Origin: Acaryochloridaceae cyanobacterium VAR_48_metabat_390
GTDB lineage: Bacteria; Cyanobacteriota; Cyanobacteriia; Thermosynechococcales; Thermosynechococcaceae
DNA length: 25,636 bases
Reading direction: 5' to 3'
Assembly (NCBI GenBank): GCA_031422435.1
Contig: JANPLU010000015.1
Location: forward strand, 1-25,636
Positions 4,309-25,213 of the stretch are shown piece by piece. Position numbers and translations under genes: made by a program. The notes under the pieces are model-generated. The model was not told the origin of the DNA, made no database searches, and worked only from the letters and a program-made list of their open reading frames with translations. Each line of letters starts with the position of its first letter. Position 1 is the first letter of the stretch.

Positions 4309-7300
4309 ATGAATGAGGTAGATACGGGGCGGGTTCAGGGTTTTCTTAAGAAGTGGCTGGGTTCTGAGGGGAATGAACGGGCGAATTATCAAACGTTTTT
4401 TGGCGATTTCTGCATTGCGTTAGGGGTTGAGGGGCCGCCACCCAAGGGAAGTGGGGAGGGCGATCGCTATTGCTTCGACAAAAATATCAAGTTCTACACC
4501 GAGAAGGCTGAGACGACGAGGTTTGCAGACTTTTACAAAGAAGGTCACTTTTTAGTTGAGGCGAAGCAGGGCAGTACAGATTCGAGTAAGGGGCACGGGA
4601 AGCGTGGGACGAAGACCTACAAGGACGCGATGCAGAAGGCGTTTAACCAGGCGAAGTCTTATGCCTACAACCGGATGCTGCCATCGCTGCCACCGTTTTT
4701 GATGACGTGTGACATTGGCTCCCATTTTGAGGTGTGGGAGGGGTTTAGTGGGGAATACGGCAGTTATGGCGCGCGCAAGCAGATCAATCTGAATGATTTG
4801 GTGCAGCCGGAGGTGTTTGACCGCTTTGTGGCAATTTTCACCGATCCGCAGTCGCTGAACCCAGAGAAGTATCGAGCGCGAGTGACTCGGGAGGTGGCGG
4901 CGGAGTTGGCGAAGCTGTCGCGGTGGCTGGAGGAGCAGGGACGAGAACCCCACGAGACGGCTAATTTTTTAATGCGCTGCATTTTTACGATGTTTGCGGA
5001 GGATGTGGAGCTGCTGAAGGGGGAGGTGTTTACGAAGGCGTTGCGCGATCGCTGGATTCCGAACCCGGAGACCTTTAAGCCTGAGATTGAGGCGTTGTGG
5101 CAAACGATGAACACAGGGGGTACGTTTGGGTTTGAGCGCATTCTGAAGTTTAACGGCAGCTTTTTTGAGGATGCGACGGCGTTTGAGTTGCCGAGGGCGC
5201 AGCTTGAGGTGCTGTATGCGGCGGCAGCGAAGGATTGGAGCCAGGTGGAGCCTGCTATTTTTGGGACGCTGCTAGAACGCGCACTAGAGAAGAAGGAGCG
5301 CAGCCGATTGGGGGCGCACTATACGCCGCGCTCGTATGTGGAGCGGCTGGTGCGTCCAGTGGTGATGGAGCCGTTGCGCCAGCAGTGGGATGAGGTGGAG
5401 CTTGAGCTAAAGCGGATTTTAGAGACAACGGCGGGGCAGGAGCCGACGGCGGCACAGCGGAAGAAGGCGGAGCAGGAGATTCAGGATTTTTTGGCGGAGT
5501 TACGACAGGTGCGGATTTTGGATCCGGCTTGCGGGACGGGGAATTTTTTGTATGTGACGCTGGATTTGCTGAAGGGGCTGGAGCAGGAGGCGATCGCCCG
5601 TCTAATCGACATTGCTGGCGAGGTACAGCTTGGGCTGGAGCAGATTAACCCGTCGCAGTTTTTGGGGATTGAGATTAATCCACGGGCGGCGGCGATCGCG
5701 GAGCTGGTGATTTGGATTGGCTATTTGCAATGGTATTTCAAGCGTTATGGCAATGCGGCACCGCCGGAGCCTGTGTTGCAGGCGTTTGGCAATATTGAGT
5801 GTCGGGATGCGGTGTTGGCCTATGACGGCACGGAGCCGGATGTGGATGCGAAGACGGGGGAGGTGAGGACGCGCTGGGGTGGGCGGATGATGCACCATCC
5901 GGTGACGGGGGAGGATGTGCCGGATCCGAGCGATCGGGTGGTGATTTATCGGTATTTAAATGCGCGGGCGGCGGAGTGGCCGGAGGCGGATTATGTGGTG
6001 TCGAATCCGCCGTTTATTGGGAATGCAAGGATGAGGGAAGCACTTGGTGACGGTTATGCCGAAAAACTACGTGAAACTTATCAGGATGTGCCTGAAACCG
6101 TTGATTTTGTTATGTACTGGTGGCACAAAGCAGCAGAACTAACAAGAAGAGATGAATTCAAAAGATTTGGTTTTATCACAACTAATAGTATTCCCCAAAT
6201 TCGCCAAAGAAAGGTTATTGAATTTCATCAAAACCAGCAGGATTCTATTCGTATGGTCTTTGCCATAGCGGATCATCCTTGGATTGATGAAGGTGCAGAT
6301 GTCAGAATTGCTATGACTGTTGGCGAAAAGAATTTATCTATGAAAGTTGTATCAATCTCTGAGCTAGGAAATATTCTTTCCGAAGAAGATGGAGAAACCC
6401 CTGAACAAAAAGCTGAAAACGTAAAAATTTATTGGAAGAGAGTCAGTTTAATTCTCAGCAACCTTAGTTCTGGAGCAGATGTAACGAAAATCAGCCCGCT
6501 AGCAGCAAACTGTAATCTTTCTAGTAGAGGCGTGATGATTAATGGCTCTGGTTTCCTCCTTGAAGAAAATGATTTTGAAAAGGTTGAGTCTGATATTCTC
6601 TTTCCCTATTTGAATGGTAGAGATTTAATGCAATTCTCACGTAATACGAGAGTCATAGATTTATTTGGAAAAAATATTTTGGAAATCAAGACGCAATACC
6701 CTAAAGCTTATCAATGGATTTTAGAAAGGGTAAAACCAAAACGAAAGACTAGTAACGATAAGAGGCTGCGTGAAGAATGGTGGAACTTTGAGAGGCCGCG
6801 CCCTGAAATTCGTGATGCACTCAAAAAACTATCTCGCTATATAGCAACCGTAGAAACTAGTAAGCATCGAGTATTTACATTCTTTGATCGCAATATAGTT
6901 CCTGACAATATGCTGGTCATAATTGCGCTTGATGATGCCTATTTTTTAGGAATCCTTTCTTGCTTTATTCATAGAGCTTGGTGCTTGGCAAATGGTGGAT
7001 CATTAGGTGTCTATATTGGGAATATTCGTTATAACAATACCCGTTTATTAGATACTTTTCCCTTTCAATATACTACGCATGAGCAAAAGCAAAAAATTCG
7101 TGAGTTGGGCGATCGCCTTGACACCCATCGCAAACAAGTCCAAGCCGCCTATCCAGAAATCACCATCACCGGAATGTATAACCTGCTTGAAAAACTGCGA
7201 TCGGGTCAGCCGTTTACAGATGGTGATCGTGAGTACAACAATAAAGCGCTGGTTTCTACGCTGAAGCAAATCCATGATGAATTGGATGTGGCGGTGTTGG

Positions 7301-8382
7301 AGGCGTATGGTTGGCAAGATTTGGTGCCGCTGCTAAGCCCCTCACCCCTAGCCCCTCTCCCAGCGGGAGAGGGGAACCGGAAAGATGTTAACCCGTCCGA
7401 CTGGGACAGTGAATTCTCTCATCTAGCAGGTCGCTGGCGACAGATACCTGAAGCCTTTCTGCAACGGGTGCGGCAACTGCGACAGCAGCAAACCCCCGCC
7501 GAGCAATTCCTATGGGAACTCCTGCGCGATCGCCGTTTCCTAAATGCAAAATTCCGCCGTCAACATACCCTTGGCTCCTACATCGCAGACTTCTACTGCC
7601 ACCAAGCCCACCTAGTCATTGAGCTAGACGGCAGCATCCACCAAAGCCAAACCCTCAGAGATCAAGATCGAGATCAGTGGATGCAGGCCAATGGAGTAAC
7701 CGTACTGCGCTTTTCTAACGATGCCGTTTATCACCAAACTGCGGAAGTATTGAATGCGATCGCAGAATTAATATGCCCCTCCCCCCCTTCGACAAGCTCC
7801 CTATTGCCAAAGGCAAGGCTACGCCAACGACAGCCTCAGGACACAGCAAGGCAACGCCTAGCCCCTCACCCAAAAGTAGAGGAAAACCAGATCATGCCCC
7901 CTTCTCCCGCTGGGAGAAGGGCTGGGGATGAGGGGCAATCCATGAATGAAAAATCCTCAGACGAAACCCTCCTCGAACGCCTCGTTGCCCTCAACGCCGA
8001 ACGTGCCGCCGAAGAACGCAACGGCCTTATCCGCTGGCTGCGCCCCGAATACCAAGCCCCCGACCAAGCCAAACCCACCCAAACCACCCTTGAAGGCATA
8101 GACATTGAAGCAGAAACCGCCATCATCGCCCCCGTCGAACAGCAAAAATGGCCCACCCAACCCAAAGCCCAACTCACCGCCATCCGCGACCTACTGCGCA
8201 CCAGCAGCGGCGAATGGACAGCCCTACAAATCGCCAGCCAATTTACGGGACGCAACACCCAGAAAAAATTGGATGCCGTTAGAGAAAACTGTGATCGGCT
8301 GGAATGGTTTGGGCTACTTATCCGGCGCGAAGAAGGAGGTGTAGTGTATTGGCAATATGCCGAATTGCAACAAACCGCCTGA
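4309..8382 (+). CDS. MmeI-like (type IIL/IIG) fused restriction endonuclease-adenine methyltransferase with an inserted DUF559 domain
   Basis: N-terminal PD-(D/E)xK-like ADFYK..LVEAK motif, GAHYTP, motif I ILDPACGTGNF and motif IV SNPPF, a TRD region, and the conserved C-terminal 'H.ELD.AVLEAYGW...LLERLVALN' segment. Confidence 0.9.
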   Translation: MNEVDTGRVQGFLKKWLGSEGNERANYQTFFGDFCIALGVEGPPPKGSGEGDRYCFDKNIKFYTEKAETTRFADFYKEGHFLVEAKQGSTDSSKGHGKRGTKTYKDAMQKAFNQAKSYAYNRMLPSLPPFLMTCDIGSHFEVWEGFSGEYGSYGARKQINLNDLVQPEVFDRFVAIFTDPQSLNPEKYRARVTREVAAELAKLSRWLEEQGREPHETANFLMRCIFTMFAEDVELLKGEVFTKALRDRWIPNPETFKPEIEALWQTMNTGGTFGFERILKFNGSFFEDATAFELPRAQLEVLYAAAAKDWSQVEPAIFGTLLERALEKKERSRLGAHYTPRSYVERLVRPVVMEPLRQQWDEVELELKRILETTAGQEPTAAQRKKAEQEIQDFLAELRQVRILDPACGTGNFLYVTLDLLKGLEQEAIARLIDIAGEVQLGLEQINPSQFLGIEINPRAAAIAELVIWIGYLQWYFKRYGNAAPPEPVLQAFGNIECRDAVLAYDGTEPDVDAKTGEVRTRWGGRMMHHPVTGEDVPDPSDRVVIYRYLNARAAEWPEADYVVSNPPFIGNARMREALGDGYAEKLRETYQDVPETVDFVMYWWHKAAELTRRDEFKRFGFITTNSIPQIRQRKVIEFHQNQQDSIRMVFAIADHPWIDEGADVRIAMTVGEKNLSMKVVSISELGNILSEEDGETPEQKAENVKIYWKRVSLILSNLSSGADVTKISPLAANCNLSSRGVMINGSGFLLEENDFEKVESDILFPYLNGRDLMQFSRNTRVIDLFGKNILEIKTQYPKAYQWILERVKPKRKTSNDKRLREEWWNFERPRPEIRDALKKLSRYIATVETSKHRVFTFFDRNIVPDNMLVIIALDDAYFLGILSCFIHRAWCLANGGSLGVYIGNIRYNNTRLLDTFPFQYTTHEQKQKIRELGDRLDTHRKQVQAAYPEITITGMYNLLEKLRSGQPFTDGDREYNNKALVSTLKQIHDELDVAVLEAYGWQDLVPLLSPSPLAPLPAGEGNRKDVNPSDWDSEFSHLAGRWRQIPEAFLQRVRQLRQQQTPAEQFLWELLRDRRFLNAKFRRQHTLGSYIADFYCHQAHLVIELDGSIHQSQTLRDQDRDQWMQANGVTVLRFSNDAVYHQTAEVLNAIAELICPSPPSTSSLLPKARLRQRQPQDTARQRLAPHPKVEENQIMPPSPAGRRAGDEGQSMNEKSSDETLLERLVALNAERAAEERNGLIRWLRPEYQAPDQAKPTQTTLEGIDIEAETAIIAPVEQQKWPTQPKAQLTAIRDLLRTSSGEWTALQIASQFTGRNTQKKLDAVRENCDRLEWFGLLIRREEGGVVYWQYAELQQTA
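7337..7936 (+). mobile_element. 600-bp in-frame insertion: DUF559 (Vsr-like) endonuclease domain flanked by REP-like terminal inverted repeats
   Basis: The left repeat 7337-7374 and the right repeat ~7898-7936 are inverted copies (34/38 identical), and each contains its own hairpin. The interior encodes RQLRQQQTPAEQFLW..KFRRQH..YIADFYC..LVIELDGSIH..RD..VLRFSN. Confidence 0.75.
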
Positions 8383-8440
8383 AAAAAAGGAAACTACCAC
8401 CCTGTAACCCATCAAAAAAACAAATCACTACTAACAAATC

Positions 8441-8493
8441 TGTAAACGCGCCCGGATGGGATCGAACCATCGACTAACCGCTTAGAAGGCGGT
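8441..8493 (-). repeat. Duplicated 3' portion of tRNA-Arg (att-like direct repeat)
   Basis: 52/53 identical to 9176..9228, covering the anticodon arm through the 3' end plus 6 nt of flank. Confidence 0.92.
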
Positions 8494-8550
8494 CTATCAA
8501 CTTAGTAAAAACAAGGTTTTCACGAGTACAAGAAATTTTTTATCCCAAAC

Positions 8551-8956
8551 TTATCCCAGTTTTGCAGAATTTATCATTTTACTGAGGCCATTCAGAATGG
8601 GTTGATACTGATCAGGCGTTAACGTCCCTATGTAGCGGCTTACACGAGTCTTATCCAGCGATCGCGCCTGATCTAACAAAGCAATAGAGCGAGTAAGGTA
8701 AGCTCCCATCGCCTGCCGCCAAAACTGGATACAAAGCAGGGCATTGAATAGCCCATTGCTGCCCTCTAAAAGTTGTTAATGGAATCACCAGCAATATTGG
8801 GTAGCGTGGGGTTCCTAGCGCTTCTGGCACCCCTACAACGATAGCTGGGCGATATCCATGCTGCTCACGTCCAGCGGGAACCTGCTCAGGTAATGTTGCC
8901 ACAATGACATCCCCCACACCTAAAACATCATTCCCTACTCTGCTTACTGCCCTCAA
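8551..8956 (-). pseudogene. PemK/MazF-family toxin, frameshifted
   Basis: GDVIVATLP..GREQHGYRPAIVV..VIPLTT is the PemK signature. After AGCTTACCTTAC (~8690-8702) the expected C-terminus (SIALLDQARSLDKTRVSRYIGTLTPDQYQPILNGL...*) lies in the +1 frame and ends at 8551. The start codon is uncertain. Confidence 0.8.
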
Positions 8957-9122
8957 CGACGAAACCTACACCCTGTTGATAATGGATAAGCTTTCCCGTT
9001 GTCTGAGGGTTAGTATCTCCCCAGTCATAGGATTCCATCTCAGATAAATGAGAAAGGTCTGCATCTAGCCAGTTTTTGTCCTCTTGATCCATAGCCTTAA
9101 CTTCAATGGTTTTAGATTGCAT
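8928..9122 (-). CDS. Small acidic protein, putative antitoxin partner of the PemK gene
   Basis: 64 aa, acidic, with a GAGGGAGG ribosome-binding site upstream. It lies directly upstream of and overlaps the toxin ORF. Confidence 0.65.
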   Translation of the reverse strand: MQSKTIEVKAMDQEDKNWLDADLSHLSEMESYDWGDTNPQTTGKLIHYQQGVGFVVEGSKQSRE

Positions 9123-9181
9123 AAGTTCCTCCCTCGTTAGCCTTTCTATAGATCATTTCACTTAAATGCATGAATTGTAAA

Positions 9182-9254
9182 CGCGCCCGGATGGGATCGA
9201 ACCATCGACCAACCGCTTAGAAGGCGGTTGCTCTATCCACTGAGCTACGGGCGC
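9182..9254 (-). tRNA. trnR: tRNA-Arg(UCU)
   Basis: The reverse complement GCGCCCGTAGCTCAGTGGATAGAGCAACCGCCTTCTAAGCGGTTGGTCGATGGTTCGATCCCATCCGGGCGCG folds as a cloverleaf with anticodon TCT. CCA is not encoded. Confidence 0.97.
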
Positions 9255-9293
9255 AAGCAGCGTGTGCTTCTCTTCAGATAATACCCCATGTTT

Positions 9294-9899
9294 CTACGCG
9301 CTAGCACTCCTTTCACAATGCCTAGACAGGAGATAACGAATCACGATCGCCGCATTGACCCAATGTGGCGTCGAGTCCCTACGCCGCCACCATCCCCAGG
9401 CTTCTTGTGGCGATCGCCATAAATCCAAATGCGGCACCCCTGGTTCTGCGTAAAATGGGTCTTGCCCCATCCCCAGCGCTTGGCTACTCCAGTGGGTAAA
9501 CCCATCATGGCTCAGCCGATAAATCGGAAATGCTCCGTAGAGCGGCACTCCCCATCCATCTAGGGCAATGACTGCGCGAAGGGTGCCGCCCTGCTGTTGC
9601 CAAGCCCAAGCTGCCCCCGCCATCCCTACTACGCCTGCACTAAAGCCAATCATCACCAGGGGTTGGGTTATCGAAACGTTTTGATGTAGGAACCGTAAAA
9701 TATGATCAGGTGAAAAACCCCAATATTGAGCATCTGGAACAATATAAGGAGCTGGCAGTGCAGCAAATAGGGCGTTGGGCAACGTTACCGCCTCAATCGC
9801 AGCCCAAAAGTCTGCCGTGAGGGCTGGGTCATGAATACCAGGACATAAAATAATCGGCACAATTGGATCTTGAATATTTTTATGATCGCCTAAACGCAT
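9294..9899 (-). CDS. Alpha/beta-hydrolase-like conserved cyanobacterial protein
   Basis: CPGIH motif, nucleophile-elbow-like IGFSAG, ALDGWGVPL and a downstream His (PHLDLW). Confidence 0.7.
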   Translation of the reverse strand: MRLGDHKNIQDPIVPIILCPGIHDPALTADFWAAIEAVTLPNALFAALPAPYIVPDAQYWGFSPDHILRFLHQNVSITQPLVMIGFSAGVVGMAGAAWAWQQQGGTLRAVIALDGWGVPLYGAFPIYRLSHDGFTHWSSQALGMGQDPFYAEPGVPHLDLWRSPQEAWGWWRRRDSTPHWVNAAIVIRYLLSRHCERSASA

Positions 9900-19043: not shown

Positions 19044-22000
19044 ATGCCCTATCCAGAGCCTGAACGCTACATTCCCCTTCAACTGCGTTTATTGGCAAGC
19101 CACCCAGCGCTCCTAGAAGGGTTAGACACATGGCTTAAGTTAGGACTCATCACCGACCGCGAAGTGCAGATTCTCTGCCAGCGTTATTTAACGAGCGATC
19201 TTCCGGCACAAAAAATTGTCGCATCAACGCCTGCAAGCACGGCGATCGCCACTGAAATCACTCAGCCGCAGATGGCTGCGATCGCCACTCCCTCAGCCTC
19301 GCCCCCAAGCCCTCGTAGCCCAAGCTGGGTGAGCCAGTTTTTACAAAGTCTGATTAACGAAGTCAGCGTCATTTGGCTGCTATGTCTAGGGGTTTTCTTA
19401 GTCATCGCATCTTCGGCGGTACTGGCTGCCAACCAGTGGGAAAACCTCTCCGCCGCAGGGCAGTACGGCATTTTATTAACCTACACTGTGGCCTTTATTG
19501 GAGCCAGTTTTTGGACTGCCACAAAGCCTCAGCTTTTAATCACGGCTCGGATGCTGCAAGTCGCAAGTTTGCTCCTAATTCCAGTCAATTTTTGGGTGAT
19601 GGACGGGTTTCGGCTGCTCCAGAGCGGTAGCGGCATCATAATGGCGGCGATCGCAGCGGTATTGCTGTCCGTGGCGATCGCAATACTCATGCCGAAACGT
19701 CACAACACCCGCGCAATTACCGCGAACGTTTTGGGACTCAGTTGGCTGCACTGGGGCTGGGGGTTCGCGTCTGTTCCGGTCATTGCAACCTACATCGGCT
19801 GCATTGGCACCTCAGCGATTCTCTTGGCACAGCAACAGGCGGAACCTACAGAAGAACCAAAAACAGCCTGGTGGAGCCGCATTTCTGCCGCCGACATTGT
19901 GCTGCCCTTTGCGGTAATGCTGCTGCTGTTTCGTGCCTGTGTGGTGGTTGCGGTGCCCTTAGAGCAATTAGGGCTAGCCTTTGGACTCTGCGGCTGGCTG
20001 CTGTGTTGGCAAACGCGCAGCCAGCTGTCTGGGCAGATTTGGGCGCTGATTGGGTTGGGTTTACTTGCGGTGGGCTGGCTGGTGAGCGTGGGGGCTGAAG
20101 TTCCTTGGCAAGCAGTGCTGGTGAGTGGATTGGGGCTATGGCTGCTGGGCGATCGCCTTCTACGCCATCACAACCCTGCCGATCTCATTGGCCTATTTAT
20201 TGTGGGTCTAGGCAGTCTTGGGGTTGCTCTCCGACTCGTCCCGTCTTCACTGCGCGAGGCTTTTACCGTAGCCTGCACAAACTGGTTTGGCTCAGCGGGT
20301 ATGCCGGACGTGCTTTGGAGCATCGGGCTATATCCCTATCTCTGGGGATTTTTAGGACTCACCTTTTATCTACGCCGGACTCAGCAGCCACGCCTGGTTC
20401 GGGTTGGCTACACCCTAAGCTGGATTTTGGGGGTCTGCTTAGTGGGCTTGAGCTTGCTTAACCCAGGGGTGCGATCGCTGTCTCTCTGGCTAGCGCTATT
20501 AACCTTAGGGGCTGCGCTGCGGCAGCAGTCTTCTGAGCGACGGGTGTTGGTTTACATCACGCATCTGTTGGGGTTAGCTGCAATCTTCTCGACCGTAGAT
20601 AATTTCGCGCCCCCGTTGAGCATTGCACATTGGGGCATTTTGGTATTGGCGGTCATGGTTATTGAGTGGGTCGCGTCTCTGCTGTTGACGCGATACGCTT
20701 TGTGGCAAGAAAGCGCCTGGTTTGTGGGTCTAGGGTTAGCAGGGCTAGGGTATTTGCTGCTGGCTGGCTCCATTGGAACAGCGCTAGCAATACAGCGCAG
20801 TGCGGTGCTCGTGATTCCGACTGCCCTGACCAGTCTTGCGTTTTTTCCGCAGTTTAGACGGGTTGAGGCCGCTGCCGGACTGAGCGTAGTAGGCGTGATT
20901 GCGGTTCAGTTTTTGACCTTTGAGGCAACGGTTCCCCGTCTGATTGGGCTGGCGCTGGGAGCTTCGCTGATGGTGCTTAATACGGTACGCAGCCCCAATC
21001 TGCTTGCTGCTTTTCTAAGCATTGGGTTTGGCCTTACCTTTGGCTATGCCCTTGGGTGGGAGGTTTTACCCCTAAGTTTTCAGAATTGGGTATTGCTTTG
21101 CGTGGGTTTACTGTGGGGCATGTTTATACTGCGGCAGGGACTATCGTTTCAAAGCTGGAACGTGAGCCGCCCCTTTCAGCGCGCTTTGGATGGCTGGGCG
21201 ATCGCCGTAACCCTCTGGACAAGTCTGCCCCTAGCCGTCTATGGATTAATCACAGTCTTGGCTCCGACATCATGGCTTCTTCCCTTTGGCTGGGTTTATC
21301 CTACTGCCGCTGCGGTGCTGACGGCGGCTCTGGCCTATCGCCACTGGCAGGCTCCCCTACCGCTTGGACTGGTGGGTATCGCTTGGGGGCTAGAGGTGAT
21401 GCTGGTCTGCACCTTTGCCTATTGGGGACAGGCAGCCTCTAGTGTGGCGATCGCCACACTCTCTCTCGGCCTACTCAGCGTATTGCTTGGGGAATTCTGG
21501 GTACGCCGCACAGGGCAACCCTACCGCTGGAGCTACAATCTCATTCCATTGGGCTACGGCGTTTTTGGGGGTGCGCTCGGTCACACAGAATGGACTGCCA
21601 CCACGGGGATTTATACCTTGACTTTGGCAATGATTGGGCTAGGGATTGGTCGTCGTTTGCCTGCGCTTGTGCCCATCACCATTTTGGGAGTATTAGGTTT
21701 TTCTCTTAGCTCTTTTGAGCTAGTGCTGTATCCGCTGCTCAACGCAAAGGGCGGTCAATCTGGGGATGGGCTGATTATTCTAGGCGCAGTGGCACTCGGC
21801 CTTGCGTTTGTCTACCGATCTATTAATCCGTGGGGTGCAAAATTTCTTAATCTCCCGCCTAATGGACTCAGTATTTTGGGGCATATTCACTGGGGACTGG
21901 GCACTTTCTTCGCCATCATTGCCCTACCAGAACTCAGCAGCTTGGGCGAACAGCTTTGGGGCGCTGAACTACTGATTCTAGGTGGTTATGCGCTCTGGCA

Positions 22001-22826
22001 GGGGCGATCGCAGCCCATCTGGATTTATGCCGGACTGGTTCAGTGCTTAATGGCGATGGGGCAGGTTTCCTATACTCAGCTACCTGTAGGGCAGGTCATG
22101 CCGTGGGCAGGGGCGATCGCTAGTGCCGTTGCTTTAGCAATCTACAGTCTGCCGTGGGCGCGTTGGGGCTGGGCAAAGCCGCCGTTTACGCAGGTGGCGA
22201 TCGCACTTCCTGCCGCCGTCACGCTGCTCAGTGCCTTTCAAATCAACACCAGCAGTCTTTTGCTGGTGGGCGGTTTCTATGGCTGGATTGCGTTTGCTAC
22301 CCAGGTTACGCGCATTAGCTATATTGGCCTACCTGCGGTGTACTGGGCGGCGCTCAAGCTATTAGAAGCGCTTCAGCTTACTTCCTCTATCTGGAGCGTG
22401 GGCTTAGTGGGGCTATCGCTTTTGTTTGTGGCTCAAATTGACCCCGCGTTCCAATCTGCTACCCGACGAGAGCTGCGGCACACGCTGCGCTGTTTTGCCG
22501 TGGGGCTGGTGGGCGTAACGGCGCTGTATGAGTCGGATGCCTACTTCTGGTCAGGGGTTGTGACCATTGGCTTTAGCTTAGTTTTGGTGGTGTTGGGGCT
22601 GGTTTTACGAGTCCGTGCCTTTCTCTATGTGGGTACGCTCACTTTTGTATTCAAGGTACTGCGGCTGATTTGGCTGTTTGTGGCTCACGAGTCTCAGACG
22701 CTTTGGATTTTGGCGTTTATCCCAGGTGTGCTAATTATTTGGATTGCAATGACTTTTGAGGCACGGCGATCGCAGGTGACGGCACTGCTGCAATACTGGG
22801 TGACTGCTTTAGAAGAATGGCAATAA
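19044..22826 (+). CDS. Large polytopic membrane protein (DUF2157-like)
   Basis: 1260 aa, a short soluble N-terminus (W..LGLI), a Pro/Ser linker, then many hydrophobic helices and a C-terminal RAFLYVGT..FEARR..W segment. Confidence 0.75.
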   Translation: MPYPEPERYIPLQLRLLASHPALLEGLDTWLKLGLITDREVQILCQRYLTSDLPAQKIVASTPASTAIATEITQPQMAAIATPSASPPSPRSPSWVSQFLQSLINEVSVIWLLCLGVFLVIASSAVLAANQWENLSAAGQYGILLTYTVAFIGASFWTATKPQLLITARMLQVASLLLIPVNFWVMDGFRLLQSGSGIIMAAIAAVLLSVAIAILMPKRHNTRAITANVLGLSWLHWGWGFASVPVIATYIGCIGTSAILLAQQQAEPTEEPKTAWWSRISAADIVLPFAVMLLLFRACVVVAVPLEQLGLAFGLCGWLLCWQTRSQLSGQIWALIGLGLLAVGWLVSVGAEVPWQAVLVSGLGLWLLGDRLLRHHNPADLIGLFIVGLGSLGVALRLVPSSLREAFTVACTNWFGSAGMPDVLWSIGLYPYLWGFLGLTFYLRRTQQPRLVRVGYTLSWILGVCLVGLSLLNPGVRSLSLWLALLTLGAALRQQSSERRVLVYITHLLGLAAIFSTVDNFAPPLSIAHWGILVLAVMVIEWVASLLLTRYALWQESAWFVGLGLAGLGYLLLAGSIGTALAIQRSAVLVIPTALTSLAFFPQFRRVEAAAGLSVVGVIAVQFLTFEATVPRLIGLALGASLMVLNTVRSPNLLAAFLSIGFGLTFGYALGWEVLPLSFQNWVLLCVGLLWGMFILRQGLSFQSWNVSRPFQRALDGWAIAVTLWTSLPLAVYGLITVLAPTSWLLPFGWVYPTAAAVLTAALAYRHWQAPLPLGLVGIAWGLEVMLVCTFAYWGQAASSVAIATLSLGLLSVLLGEFWVRRTGQPYRWSYNLIPLGYGVFGGALGHTEWTATTGIYTLTLAMIGLGIGRRLPALVPITILGVLGFSLSSFELVLYPLLNAKGGQSGDGLIILGAVALGLAFVYRSINPWGAKFLNLPPNGLSILGHIHWGLGTFFAIIALPELSSLGEQLWGAELLILGGYALWQGRSQPIWIYAGLVQCLMAMGQVSYTQLPVGQVMPWAGAIASAVALAIYSLPWARWGWAKPPFTQVAIALPAAVTLLSAFQINTSSLLLVGGFYGWIAFATQVTRISYIGLPAVYWAALKLLEALQLTSSIWSVGLVGLSLLFVAQIDPAFQSATRRELRHTLRCFAVGLVGVTALYESDAYFWSGVVTIGFSLVLVVLGLVLRVRAFLYVGTLTFVFKVLRLIWLFVAHESQTLWILAFIPGVLIIWIAMTFEARRSQVTALLQYWVTALEEWQ

Positions 22827-23554: not shown

Positions 23555-25213
23555 CTACCGTACAATCAACTTTGCAAACAACCCACCTTCGCCCATCCAT
23601 TCCTTCTCCAATAGCCTCACCTCCAGCTCAAACAGCCTACGGTAAGACAGCGAATAGCCTAAAATCGGATGTTTCCAGCTTTCATCCTTACGACGCTCAT
23701 AAAGCTGAATAAACTTACGACTACCGTCATTGCTCAGCCAAACCTGTTGCCCTCTCACCTCAAAATCTTCATTTACATCCCACTGACTGCGATTAATAGA
23801 GGCCACAACGGTCATATCTACCAACGGCACCCTAAAAATCTCCATCAAATCCAACGCCAGTGGTGATGCCTGAGTTCTGGGCTGATGGTAAAACCCTAAA
23901 GCAGGCTCCAACCCCACCGTCAAAATGGCATTCATCACATCCTTGAGCAATAGGGCATAGCCAAACCCCAGTAGGGCATTAAACCGATCCTTCGGTGGAC
24001 GACGATTCCGCTCATTGAAATGCAGTAACACAGGCACATTCTGAGAGACTAACTGAGACAAAACTCCAAAATAAATTGCCGCCAACTTTCCCTCTACTCC
24101 CAGCAGTGAAGGCAGCGAATCTGCATACTTCACCTGTTTTAGGAGCGCCTGCATTTGGGCGATCGCCTCCGTCAGTTCCTCACAGCGATTGCCCCGTTGC
24201 CCCCGCATCAAAAACTTACGCTGACTTTGCCCTCGACACTGCACTAACTGTTTCGCCATCGTCAGGCAAAATGCCGGATCGCTCAAAGCGCCATACTGTC
24301 GAATCCGACGCTGAATGCTGCCCTGGCGCTGGTCAAAGCTGCCAATATAGCGCCCACCGCCAGATACTAGATGCACCCCCACCTCATATTCCTTACAGAA
24401 ATACAGCGCCTGTGTTGAGATCTGAGAATAGCTGTGCAGCACTACCTGAGACACCTGCCGAATCGCCATCTTTTCTACAGGCTTGCCCTTAAGCGTCACC
24501 TTAAGCTGATCGCCCGATCGCCCCACGCAAGTTCCTGGCTCTAAAATATGCAGCACCTCCCGTTCATCATCCGCCGGAAACAATCGAATCGGCTGCCACT
24601 CACGGTCATGAGCAAGCCGCGCCTCCTCTGGCAAACAAACCGGAGCCAAAGAACACCGCGCACACAGGCGTTCGTTTTCTGTCACCGGAGGTCGTAACGT
24701 TGAAGTTCTTAGCGCTCTGGCGCGATGAATGGCATCTTGTACCGCCTGTCGCCCTACATCATCTAAAGGCACATGCACCAAAACATTATCGGCATGGTAA
24801 CGAATGCGGCCTTCAACAATCTGGATGCCCAGCGCACATTCTAATAGACAGGCATAGGAAAGAATTTGGAGGCGATCGCTTTCCCAAGCCTGCGGTTGAT
24901 TCTCTGCATCTCGATGGCAGCGCCCCCGCTTATGCTCATAGGGGATTGTCTGTCCATCGCGGGTACGCAGTGCATCTACCCGACCGCGTAAGCCTAGTTC
25001 TGGGCTTTCTAGAAACAACTCATCCCAATCTTCGTCTTCTTGTTTTTCTAGCTCTGCATGGAGCCTACGCCCCGCGAAGACAGCAGCATCTTGGGTGTAG
25101 AGTTCTTCGACTTCTTCAAGGTAAAATAGCCGTGGGCAGTAGGCTAGGGCATGGAGTGCAGAAACCCGAATAGTGTCGGAGCTTGTGGCAGTAGCTTGCA
25201 GCAGCGTTGTCAT
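23555..25213 (-). CDS. cas1: Cas4-Cas1 fusion (type I-MYXAN-like)
   Basis: N-terminal Cas4 (YCPRLFY, GRVD, PYEHKRG, CARCSLAPVC) fused to Cas1 (LLGVEG..A..YF, RNRRPPKDRFNALL, GFYH, LALDLMEIFR). Confidence 0.95.
   Translation of the reverse strand: MTTLLQATATSSDTIRVSALHALAYCPRLFYLEEVEELYTQDAAVFAGRRLHAELEKQEDEDWDELFLESPELGLRGRVDALRTRDGQTIPYEHKRGRCHRDAENQPQAWESDRLQILSYACLLECALGIQIVEGRIRYHADNVLVHVPLDDVGRQAVQDAIHRARALRTSTLRPPVTENERLCARCSLAPVCLPEEARLAHDREWQPIRLFPADDEREVLHILEPGTCVGRSGDQLKVTLKGKPVEKMAIRQVSQVVLHSYSQISTQALYFCKEYEVGVHLVSGGGRYIGSFDQRQGSIQRRIRQYGALSDPAFCLTMAKQLVQCRGQSQRKFLMRGQRGNRCEELTEAIAQMQALLKQVKYADSLPSLLGVEGKLAAIYFGVLSQLVSQNVPVLLHFNERNRRPPKDRFNALLGFGYALLLKDVMNAILTVGLEPALGFYHQPRTQASPLALDLMEIFRVPLVDMTVVASINRSQWDVNEDFEVRGQQVWLSNDGSRKFIQLYERRKDESWKHPILGYSLSYRRLFELEVRLLEKEWMGEGGLFAKLIVR

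Follow-up and report, generated by a model that had tools for sequence, protein, structure and literature searches.

A DUF559 nuclease domain embedded in frame in an array of BoxC-like hairpin repeats within a cyanobacterial restriction-modification gene

Introduction

How does a nuclease domain bounded by palindromic repeats come to lie inside the reading frame of a restriction-modification (R-M) enzyme, and could it have moved there by its own activity? The question is raised by a contig (C15; GenBank JANPLU010000015.1) of the 3.70 Mb assembly of Acaryochloridaceae cyanobacterium VAR_48_metabat_390 (GCA_031422435.1, labelled G000). The contig, which is rich in HIP1 octamers, was analysed over its whole length of 25,636 nucleotides (nt) and is referred to below as the window. 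An earlier note, made from the sequence alone, had described within a gene for an MmeI-like R-M enzyme a 600-bp segment that is bounded by inverted hairpins and encodes a DUF559 (PF04480) domain, and had proposed that it is a mobile element compatible with translation. The comparisons presented here show that this cassette is a nuclease residing in a variable array of hairpin repeats related to the BoxC family, and that DUF559 and such hairpins recur together in unrelated genes.

Architecture of the cassette

The inverted arms of the cassette, 38 nt long and complementary at 34 of 38 positions (89%), form the longest inverted repeat of the window, and each folds into a GC-rich hairpin of 10-12 bp; folds of the single arms are unremarkable against shuffled sequences (z -1.1 to -2.1). 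The 600-bp segment from arm to arm (7337-7936) starts one base off the codon phase of its host open reading frame (ORF) and is translated as SPSPLAPLPAGEG...PPSPAGRRAGDEG around an intact DUF559 domain (E 3e-34), in a frame that stays open for 1357 residues. In these respects the earlier description is confirmed. Removing the segment in silico also keeps the frame and gives the junction peptide that had been quoted. Any nearby in-frame removal of 600 bp preserves the frame likewise, and the boundary of exactly 600 bp is unproven, no natural allele matching it.

The order of the parts is L - DUF559 - L' - R (Table 1). The right end is thus a whole short element (L' and R) rather than one arm, and the nuclease domain is flanked by two direct copies of the left arm, 438 bp (146 codons) apart. 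L' is intact in the relatives G002 and G004 and interrupted here by a 69-bp insert. Left-plus-right units of 138 bp are added upstream of the cassette in some relatives (one in G001, four in G004, none in G000), one copy in G002 shows a collapsed extra unit with a frameshift, and a hot-spring contig carries the form of the array with one extra unit. The cassette is therefore a nuclease within an array of variable unit number and not a fixed 600-bp transposon. What stands of the earlier proposal is insertion of a DUF559 cassette with hairpin ends that leaves the frame open without splicing, as empty alleles and the dispersal of the repeat indicate; a two-arm transposon with exact ends does not.

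Read in the host frame, the arms contain no stop codon and code for linkers rich in Pro and Gly. Because they are open in frame and their linkers fall in a length-variable loop, no splicing is needed. Pfam scans gave no intein match on the host and Rfam scans no intron in 7200-9400, which ruled out an intein or intron as the explanation; no Rfam family matched the cassette. There is no in-frame start codon between L and the domain, so the nuclease would be made here only as part of the fusion. AA borders both ends of the cassette. No target-site duplication was consistent across the flanks of 22 left-to-right spans of the repeat in this genome, and duplication as a general property of the repeat was rejected.

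Another family, of tiny repeats with lengths in multiples of three, nests in the left arm: its members are the insert in L', locus L264 on contig C112, and loci L263 and L265. The 21-nt core of the insert, itself split here, also splits a left arm on C112, and the inner part of the insert is found again on C43 and C26. We take these tiny repeats to resemble the SDR elements of cyanobacteria.

Table 1. Parts of the cassette and its host gene in the window
Feature	Position	Strand	Basis or remark
MmeI-like type IIG/IIL R-M enzyme, 1357 residues, frame open	4309..8382	+	ORF list, Pfam, PADLOC, motif positions
Host flank AYGWQDLVPLL, opening of the variable insert-bearing loop	7303..7336	+	comparison with relatives
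Left arm L: C-rich tail and 10-bp hairpin, reads PSPLAPLPAGEG; BoxC/triplex-type motif on minus strand	7337..7374	+	
DUF559 (PF04480) Vsr/EDxHD-like nuclease domain, residues 1052-1153	7462..7767	+	Pfam, alignment, structure match
Degenerate second left arm L', direct repeat of L	about 7775..7884	+	repeat search, relatives
Nested 69-bp (23-codon) insert of other small repeats, within L'	7788..7856	+	
Right arm R: hairpin and G-rich tail, reads PPSPAGRRAGDEG	7899..7936	+	R-type variant occurs in the short elements of the genome too
Host flank running to LLERLVALN, close of the variable loop	7937..7995	+	comparison with relatives

The nuclease domain

The domain in the window retains E1065, D1094, E1105, D1107, H1111 and D1118. 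All of these except D1107 are conserved at 99-100% in 146 sequences, and E1065, D1094, H1111 and D1118 are invariant in a set of 79. A profile of the domain matches the homing endonuclease I-Bth0305I (PDB 3r3p, E 2e-5), and the catalytic residues line up with the EDxHD residues D196, H213 and D222 of that enzyme. The structural model (mean predicted local distance difference test, pLDDT, 87) matches the fold of 3hrl (template modelling score, TM, 0.70), the catalytic domain of I-Bth0305I (TM 0.66) and, weakly, Vsr. The three unsaturated pairs among 11 gave dN/dS ratios of 0.10-0.21. The nearest titled matches to the nuclease come from Thermosynechococcaceae bins.

Empty, hairpin-only and filled alleles of the host loop

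Besides DUF559, the host protein matches MmeI_N, MmeI_hel, MmeI_Mtase and, weakly, MmeI_TRD in Pfam. PADLOC assigns it to REase_MTase_IIG (1358 bits), the 1136-position profile aligning as two stretches, one on each side of the insert. The protein has its own N-terminal nuclease motif, D..EAK (residues 74-86), and intact methyltransferase motifs DPACGTG (405) and NPPF (566), so that endonuclease, methyltransferase and target recognition domain (TRD) lie in one chain with intact motifs, as in type IIG/IIL enzymes. Judged from sequence variation, the insert occupies a length-variable loop of this protein. The TRD-coding part (6001-7000) has a GC content of 37-39%, against 54-59% upstream, which is consistent with a swapped specificity region.

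Among 120 homologues ranked on the C-terminal region, six carry DUF559 in this loop and 17 were unparsed. A second parse, for which the parser was broadened and fusions were added to the set (128 rows, 120 of them usable, giving no unbiased frequency), found 86 empty alleles, 21 with hairpins only, of several subtypes, and 13 with DUF559. Relatives thus show three allele states: empty, hairpin-only and full. The linkers of natural empty alleles run from 12 to 39 residues, 12 being commonest, and because they differ in sequence they do not define the junction to single-base precision; an empty allele with exactly the junction of the earlier note was absent from 61 relatives, 120 protein homologues and 80 metagenome loci. 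The alignment with homologues for which that note had called has therefore supplied empty alleles and no exact junctions.

The allele of the window belongs to an eight-row clade nested in a starred host clade of 40 rows, the remaining 32 of which are empty, and the DUF559 state changes at least three times on the C-terminal host tree and seven times on the upstream tree. The cassette is thus a derived insertion. Filled alleles have DL after a conserved W in 34 of 34 cases and E before AYG in 33 of 34. The counts for twelve-residue alleles are 0/39 and 10/39, and DL after W is also present in all 47 longer empty alleles. The occurrence of the same flank residues in filled alleles from different host clades fits spread of the cassette together with its flanks, and could also reflect shared ancestry.

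The dispersed hairpin repeat

To search for further copies, 29 arms from G000 were combined into a profile. The C-rich arm nearly equals its own mirror image, which makes a reversed genome invalid as a control, and a locally shuffled genome was used instead. At E<=0.01 the search recovered 47 arms, and none in the shuffled genome; at a threshold of at least 16 bits it recovered 55 arms in 42 clusters, two of which are those of the cassette. The two arm types pair as inverted repeats in left-to-right spans of 71-121 bp, and most arms form such left-plus-right units ('minis'), with the left/right sequence asymmetry of the cassette. Minis are mostly intergenic, but PriA, ChlH/CobN, a WD40 protein and another MmeI gene contain minis or arms in frame. 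DUF559 itself is single-copy in the genome. G000, G001, G007 and G009 have a mini at one orthologous intergenic site (eight sequences aligned) where G002, G005 and G004 have none; this comparison of filled and empty forms at a single site yielded no clean junction.

The earlier note had labelled the repeats as repetitive extragenic palindromes (REPs). That label is not supported: they resemble the BoxC/triplex-motif type and not the GTAG REPs associated with RAYT (REP-associated tyrosine transposase) enzymes. BoxC/PIT/TMECO repeats, which form intrastrand triplexes, are described as a hairpin with a tail, with two inverted arm types and tens of copies per genome, and as abundant in cyanobacteria; in E. 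coli BoxC was already recognised in the early 1990s, and according to the same account how it spreads is not known (Holder et al., 2015; PMC4666352). Tested against the TMECO consensus (CCCTCNCCC N3-6 GGGNGAGGG N3 GGGNGAGGG), the left arm fits only a loosened form with a 5-nt second loop and not the strict one, and the right arm fails even the loosened form; the genome contains one strict and 22 loose matches. The arm family thus seems to be a close relative of BoxC/TMECO, short of strict identity.

In one loop of ChlH/CobN (24774-24853 on contig C115 of G000; loci L274 and L275), G000, G002 and G009 each have a hairpin of a different subtype, which suggests replacement or a hot spot; none of these three aligned congeners has an empty allele. 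Many minis (on C14, C33, C54, C67, C82, C96, C112 and other contigs of G000) are enclosed by further inverted repeats, of three kinds or more, which may belong to repeat families of their own or mark where larger units really end.

DUF559 and hairpins in other genomes

PF04480 is matched in 78 of 121 genomes of the class. Loci were drawn from these genomes (70, from the top of the match list and from long frames) and from a scan of GTDB (80); removal of four duplicates, the locus of the window and 11 loci with short flanks left 134. A C/G hairpin lies within 250 nt of DUF559 in 110 of the 134, on both sides in 57. Control counts are 21 of 1447 for distant windows and 8 of 184 for windows beyond the ends of genes. 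Among the DUF559 loci the proportion is 59/72 for long fusions, 51/59 for short frames and 0/3 for intein-borne DUF559. Arm peptides accompany many of 120 fusions (73 upstream, 98 downstream, 62 on both sides), compared with 31 of 868 control windows, a count biased upward by the inclusion of arms in the query. Polarity is kept as well, the outermost upstream arm being L in 40 of 52 loci and the outermost downstream arm R in 40 of 52. Co-occurrence of the repeat with DUF559 in unrelated host genes, for which the earlier note had proposed a search, is therefore far above chance, and many homologues of the host enzyme lack the domain; neither finding goes against its proposal.

Hairpin subtypes differ between nuclease clades. 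On the DUF559 tree (79 labelled cyanobacterial rows) subtype changes eight times, against a mean of 25.8 in shuffles (minimum 21 in 500), whereas the genome label is random on the same tree (62 changes against 63.7 shuffled); subtypes were assigned by regular expressions, and a few labels look misassigned. Across the 121 genomes the number of hairpins correlates with presence of the nuclease: at least five hairpins occur in 24 of 27 genomes with the two T-arm DUF559 clades, compared with 33 of the other 94. Clade status was assigned from the part of the DUF559 matches that was retrieved and is missing for some genomes.

Intein-like segments ending in HNC in three cyanobacterial genes (loci L066, L067 and L068), two of them with an N6_N4_Mtase domain, hold DUF559 without hairpins. 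The intein-borne clade adjoins the main hairpin-flanked clade, with weak support.

The association extends to E. coli K-12, where ycjD encodes a DUF559 protein 46% identical to the domain of the window. The gene ends in a hairpin, with a strict TMECO (BoxC) match 168 nt downstream, and the ycjD region is found at one locus, with ycjD standing alone, in 3346 of 5426 E. coli genomes. One paper handles ycjD as a hypothetical gene (PMC12817139), and the main text of Holder et al. (2015; PMC4666352) contains neither 'endonuclease' nor 'ycjD', although its Table S2, on genes flanking TMECO, could name it.

Hosts of the fusions

An R-M or methyltransferase Pfam domain is present in 25 of 29 long cyanobacterial fusion frames. 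In this figure DUF1156 is counted as methyltransferase-linked, an assignment that we partly presume. Only 24 of 120 listed fusions are not R-M proteins (19 MetH, two MetRS, HrpA, YgiQ and CobW), and nearly all the rest are. Within MmeI genes, closely related DUF559 domains are inserted in loops of the N-terminal, the methyltransferase or the C-terminal part, and they are also found in ISP, Eco57I-like and DUF1156 genes. The domain further varies in position among HsdR, HsdM and HsdS.

How the cassette may spread

The reading that we favour, and to which we give about an even chance, is a non-splicing selfish element: the DUF559 nuclease, embedded in its array of BoxC-type arms, would nick cognate hairpins and be copied by recombination. 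From the array structure, allele states, hairpin association and host range apparent in the sequences we infer the following course. The fused domain would be translated and active, and would recognise and nick the hairpin of its own subtype, whereupon recombinational repair would copy the cassette into other hairpin-bearing sites, with junctions set by homology of the arms and not by target duplication. Loss of DUF559 between the direct copies L and L' would leave an in-frame mini, and R-M genes, mobile and tolerant of insertions, would be the main carriers. Such arm-guided nick-and-copy homing would account for the absence of target duplications, embedding in arrays, retention of frame, shared flanks and catalytic conservation.

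Several observations weigh against this account. Purifying selection on the domain could reflect the mere need to fold inside a fusion, and the tracking of subtypes shows long-lasting linkage, not recognition, because adjacent DNA is co-inherited. The link between nuclease clades and hairpin number is weak when at least ten hairpins are required (p 0.02-0.04, with related genomes non-independent and the nuclease's own arms counted). G000 has a single DUF559 and some 40 arm clusters elsewhere, contrary to what free homing into any mini predicts, which argues that any homing is rare or restricted to certain sites. About four fifths of the fusions lie in R-M genes, which fits a host role too; carriage and tolerance may explain this bias, and benefit is also possible. 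Monophyly of 14 copies in the same loop is only marginally rejected (p 0.045 in the approximately unbiased test; bootstrap unsettled). Contigs from four of 21 listed sequencing runs contained no precise excision joint; joints skipping about 765 nt in those four runs derive from distant homologues. Among the data sets listed, none of RNA contained the locus. Finally, 15 of 43 genomes with at least ten hairpins have no full-length DUF559 match. Among these are G059 (378 copies, 92% complete), G086 (96) and G071 (65), which, like G046 (the four spanning 34-378 hairpins), gave no DUF559 to family or protein queries; their hairpins may depend on a different enzyme, or their nuclease may have been lost or left unassembled.

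The single nuclease among 42 arm clusters recalls RAYTs, and a largely sessile, single-copy DUF559 could spread left-plus-right minis in trans. It would seldom move itself, then taking its flanking arms along, and fusions would be accidents tolerated through the open frames of the arms. The presence and absence of a mini at one orthologous intergenic site across the genus and the solitary ycjD of E. coli agree with this, as does the finding that several DUF559s of one genome are non-sister and have different hairpin subtypes, as described for RAYTs (PMC3116915). Near-identical nucleases are nevertheless found in frame at several distinct sites, which shows that the nuclease gene moves, and the hairpin-rich genomes without DUF559 count against this explanation too. 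We also know of no strand-joining chemistry for nicking domains of the PD-(D/E)xK type, and on balance consider such spreading in trans unlikely. The same nuclease-less genomes suit a passive role, in which replication errors or a different enzyme disperse the hairpins while ordinary repeat recombination shuffles DUF559, its catalysis irrelevant to mobility. The three subtypes in the ChlH/CobN loop of three congeners, the several subtypes that the MmeI loop collects without a nuclease, the nesting of many minis of G000 in other inverted repeats and the reported instability of BoxC loci in E. coli (PMC4666352) point the same way. A passive role is nonetheless quite unlikely in our view, as it leaves unexplained why hairpins are kept at 110 of 134 DUF559 loci across phyla and at ycjD, why subtype follows nuclease lineage and why catalytic residues are conserved at 97-100% in 146 sequences.

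It is also conceivable that the host uses the domain, as a second nuclease of the R-M enzyme (the alternative raised in the earlier note) or for a Vsr-like repair activity, the hairpins being a historical vehicle and linker. The prevalence of R-M and methyltransferase partners described above would be expected on this account, and Vsr acts together with methyltransferases (PMC3424549). That alternative is weakened by the six orthologues in 120 with DUF559 at this loop and by the host's retention of its own nuclease motif. The insert also varies in position among loops and subunits, and there is no use for it in the MetH and MetRS fusions. Vsr serves cytosine methylation, moreover, and the host enzyme is an adenine-type methyltransferase. 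A host function is thus, to our mind, distinctly improbable as the reason for these fusions.

Returning to nick-and-copy homing, a wider proposal follows the same lines, and we rate it somewhat below an even chance: DUF559 proteins and C/G-rich hairpin repeats (BoxC/PIT/triplex-motif and their cyanobacterial sister subtypes) would be two halves of a class of mobile DNA that spans phyla and has so far gone unrecognised. In it, a minimal Vsr-like nickase would recognise its own subtype, spread short non-autonomous copies, home into them and persist in coding genes, even essential ones, through linker-encoding ends; ycjD would then be the missing enzyme of BoxC.

Relation to known systems

In layout the element works like REPINs and RAYTs and in chemistry like EDxHD homing endonucleases, and the features that define RAYTs, intein- or intron-borne homing endonucleases and miniature transposable elements with inverted repeats (MITEs) were each sought and not found. 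With REP/REPIN-RAYT systems it shares a single-copy enzyme gene between palindromes, genome-wide non-autonomous inverted doublets, enzyme-specific subtypes and some intragenic copies (PMC3116915; PMC3733652). The enzyme here is, however, a Vsr-like PD-(D/E)xK domain and not an HUH/Y1 transposase, its arms have no GTAG or CGTC tag, and it is fused in frame into host proteins. The cassette arms share with BoxC/TMECO the motif layout, the paired inverted arm types and multicopy dispersal, whereas BoxC in E. coli is described as always intergenic and without a linked mobile element (PMC4666352); the arms here are coding and bracket a nuclease. I-Bth0305I (PMC3239194) has its fold and catalytic residues in common with the DUF559 domain, which is also found in the three intein-like segments mentioned above, but the cassette has neither intron nor intein and no N-terminal NUMOD DNA-binding part, and it is hairpin-bounded and inserted in many unrelated genes rather than at one conserved site.

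As in Rickettsia palindromic elements and intragenic REPs, palindromic inserts would here be translated within host proteins, although those elements are described as coding for short peptides alone, without an enzyme (PMC3733652). The ShiLan insertion in actinophage DNA methylases likewise places an endonuclease in a methylase gene that is read through it without splicing; its nuclease is of the HNH type, out of frame with a start of its own, and the abstract mentions no hairpin arm family (PMC11855218). MITEs and classical insertion sequences have inverted arms as well, but the 22 spans show no consistent target-site duplication. The SDR elements of cyanobacteria reportedly (Elhai, 2008) are also palindromic inserts translated in host proteins, as short peptides without an enzyme. 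A full-text literature search, which left most subscription journals outside its coverage, showed, among the papers listed, none that connects these repeats with DUF559 or ycjD, and the element is likely undescribed.

Other features of the window

Just beyond the R-M gene, 8441-8493 is a 53-bp copy of the 3' part of the tRNA-Arg(TCT) gene at 9181-9255 on the minus strand. Between the two lie a PemK/MazF-like ORF split across two frames (8651-8956 and 8551-8709) and an ORF of 64 residues (8928-9122), so that 8441-9255 is likely a small toxin-antitoxin islet integrated at the tRNA. Further along are an ORF of 1260 residues resembling a membrane protein (19044-22826, plus strand), with no NCBIfam match, and a Cas4-Cas1 fusion (23555-25213, minus strand) whose top match is a type I-MYXAN Cas1.

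Significance

The findings join two orphans, the DUF559/YcjD nuclease, widespread and of unknown function, and the BoxC/triplex-motif repeats. The locus offers a three-state allele series with array expansion and a direct-repeat layout, alongside subtype tracking in cyanobacteria, nuclease-less genomes and, in ycjD, a test case: the link between ycjD and BoxC is directly testable in E. coli K-12. If the nuclease acts on the hairpins, this would be a REP/RAYT-like system with different chemistry. It would also provide a route by which R-M enzymes, methionine synthase and tRNA synthetases acquire, in frame, a domain of 100 residues with Pro/Gly linkers, and would explain why large R-M and housekeeping proteins bear names such as 'DUF559 domain-containing' or 'very-short-patch-repair endonuclease'. 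Should the wider proposal hold, linker-encoding ends would be a third way for mobile DNA to live in genes, besides RNA splicing and protein splicing.

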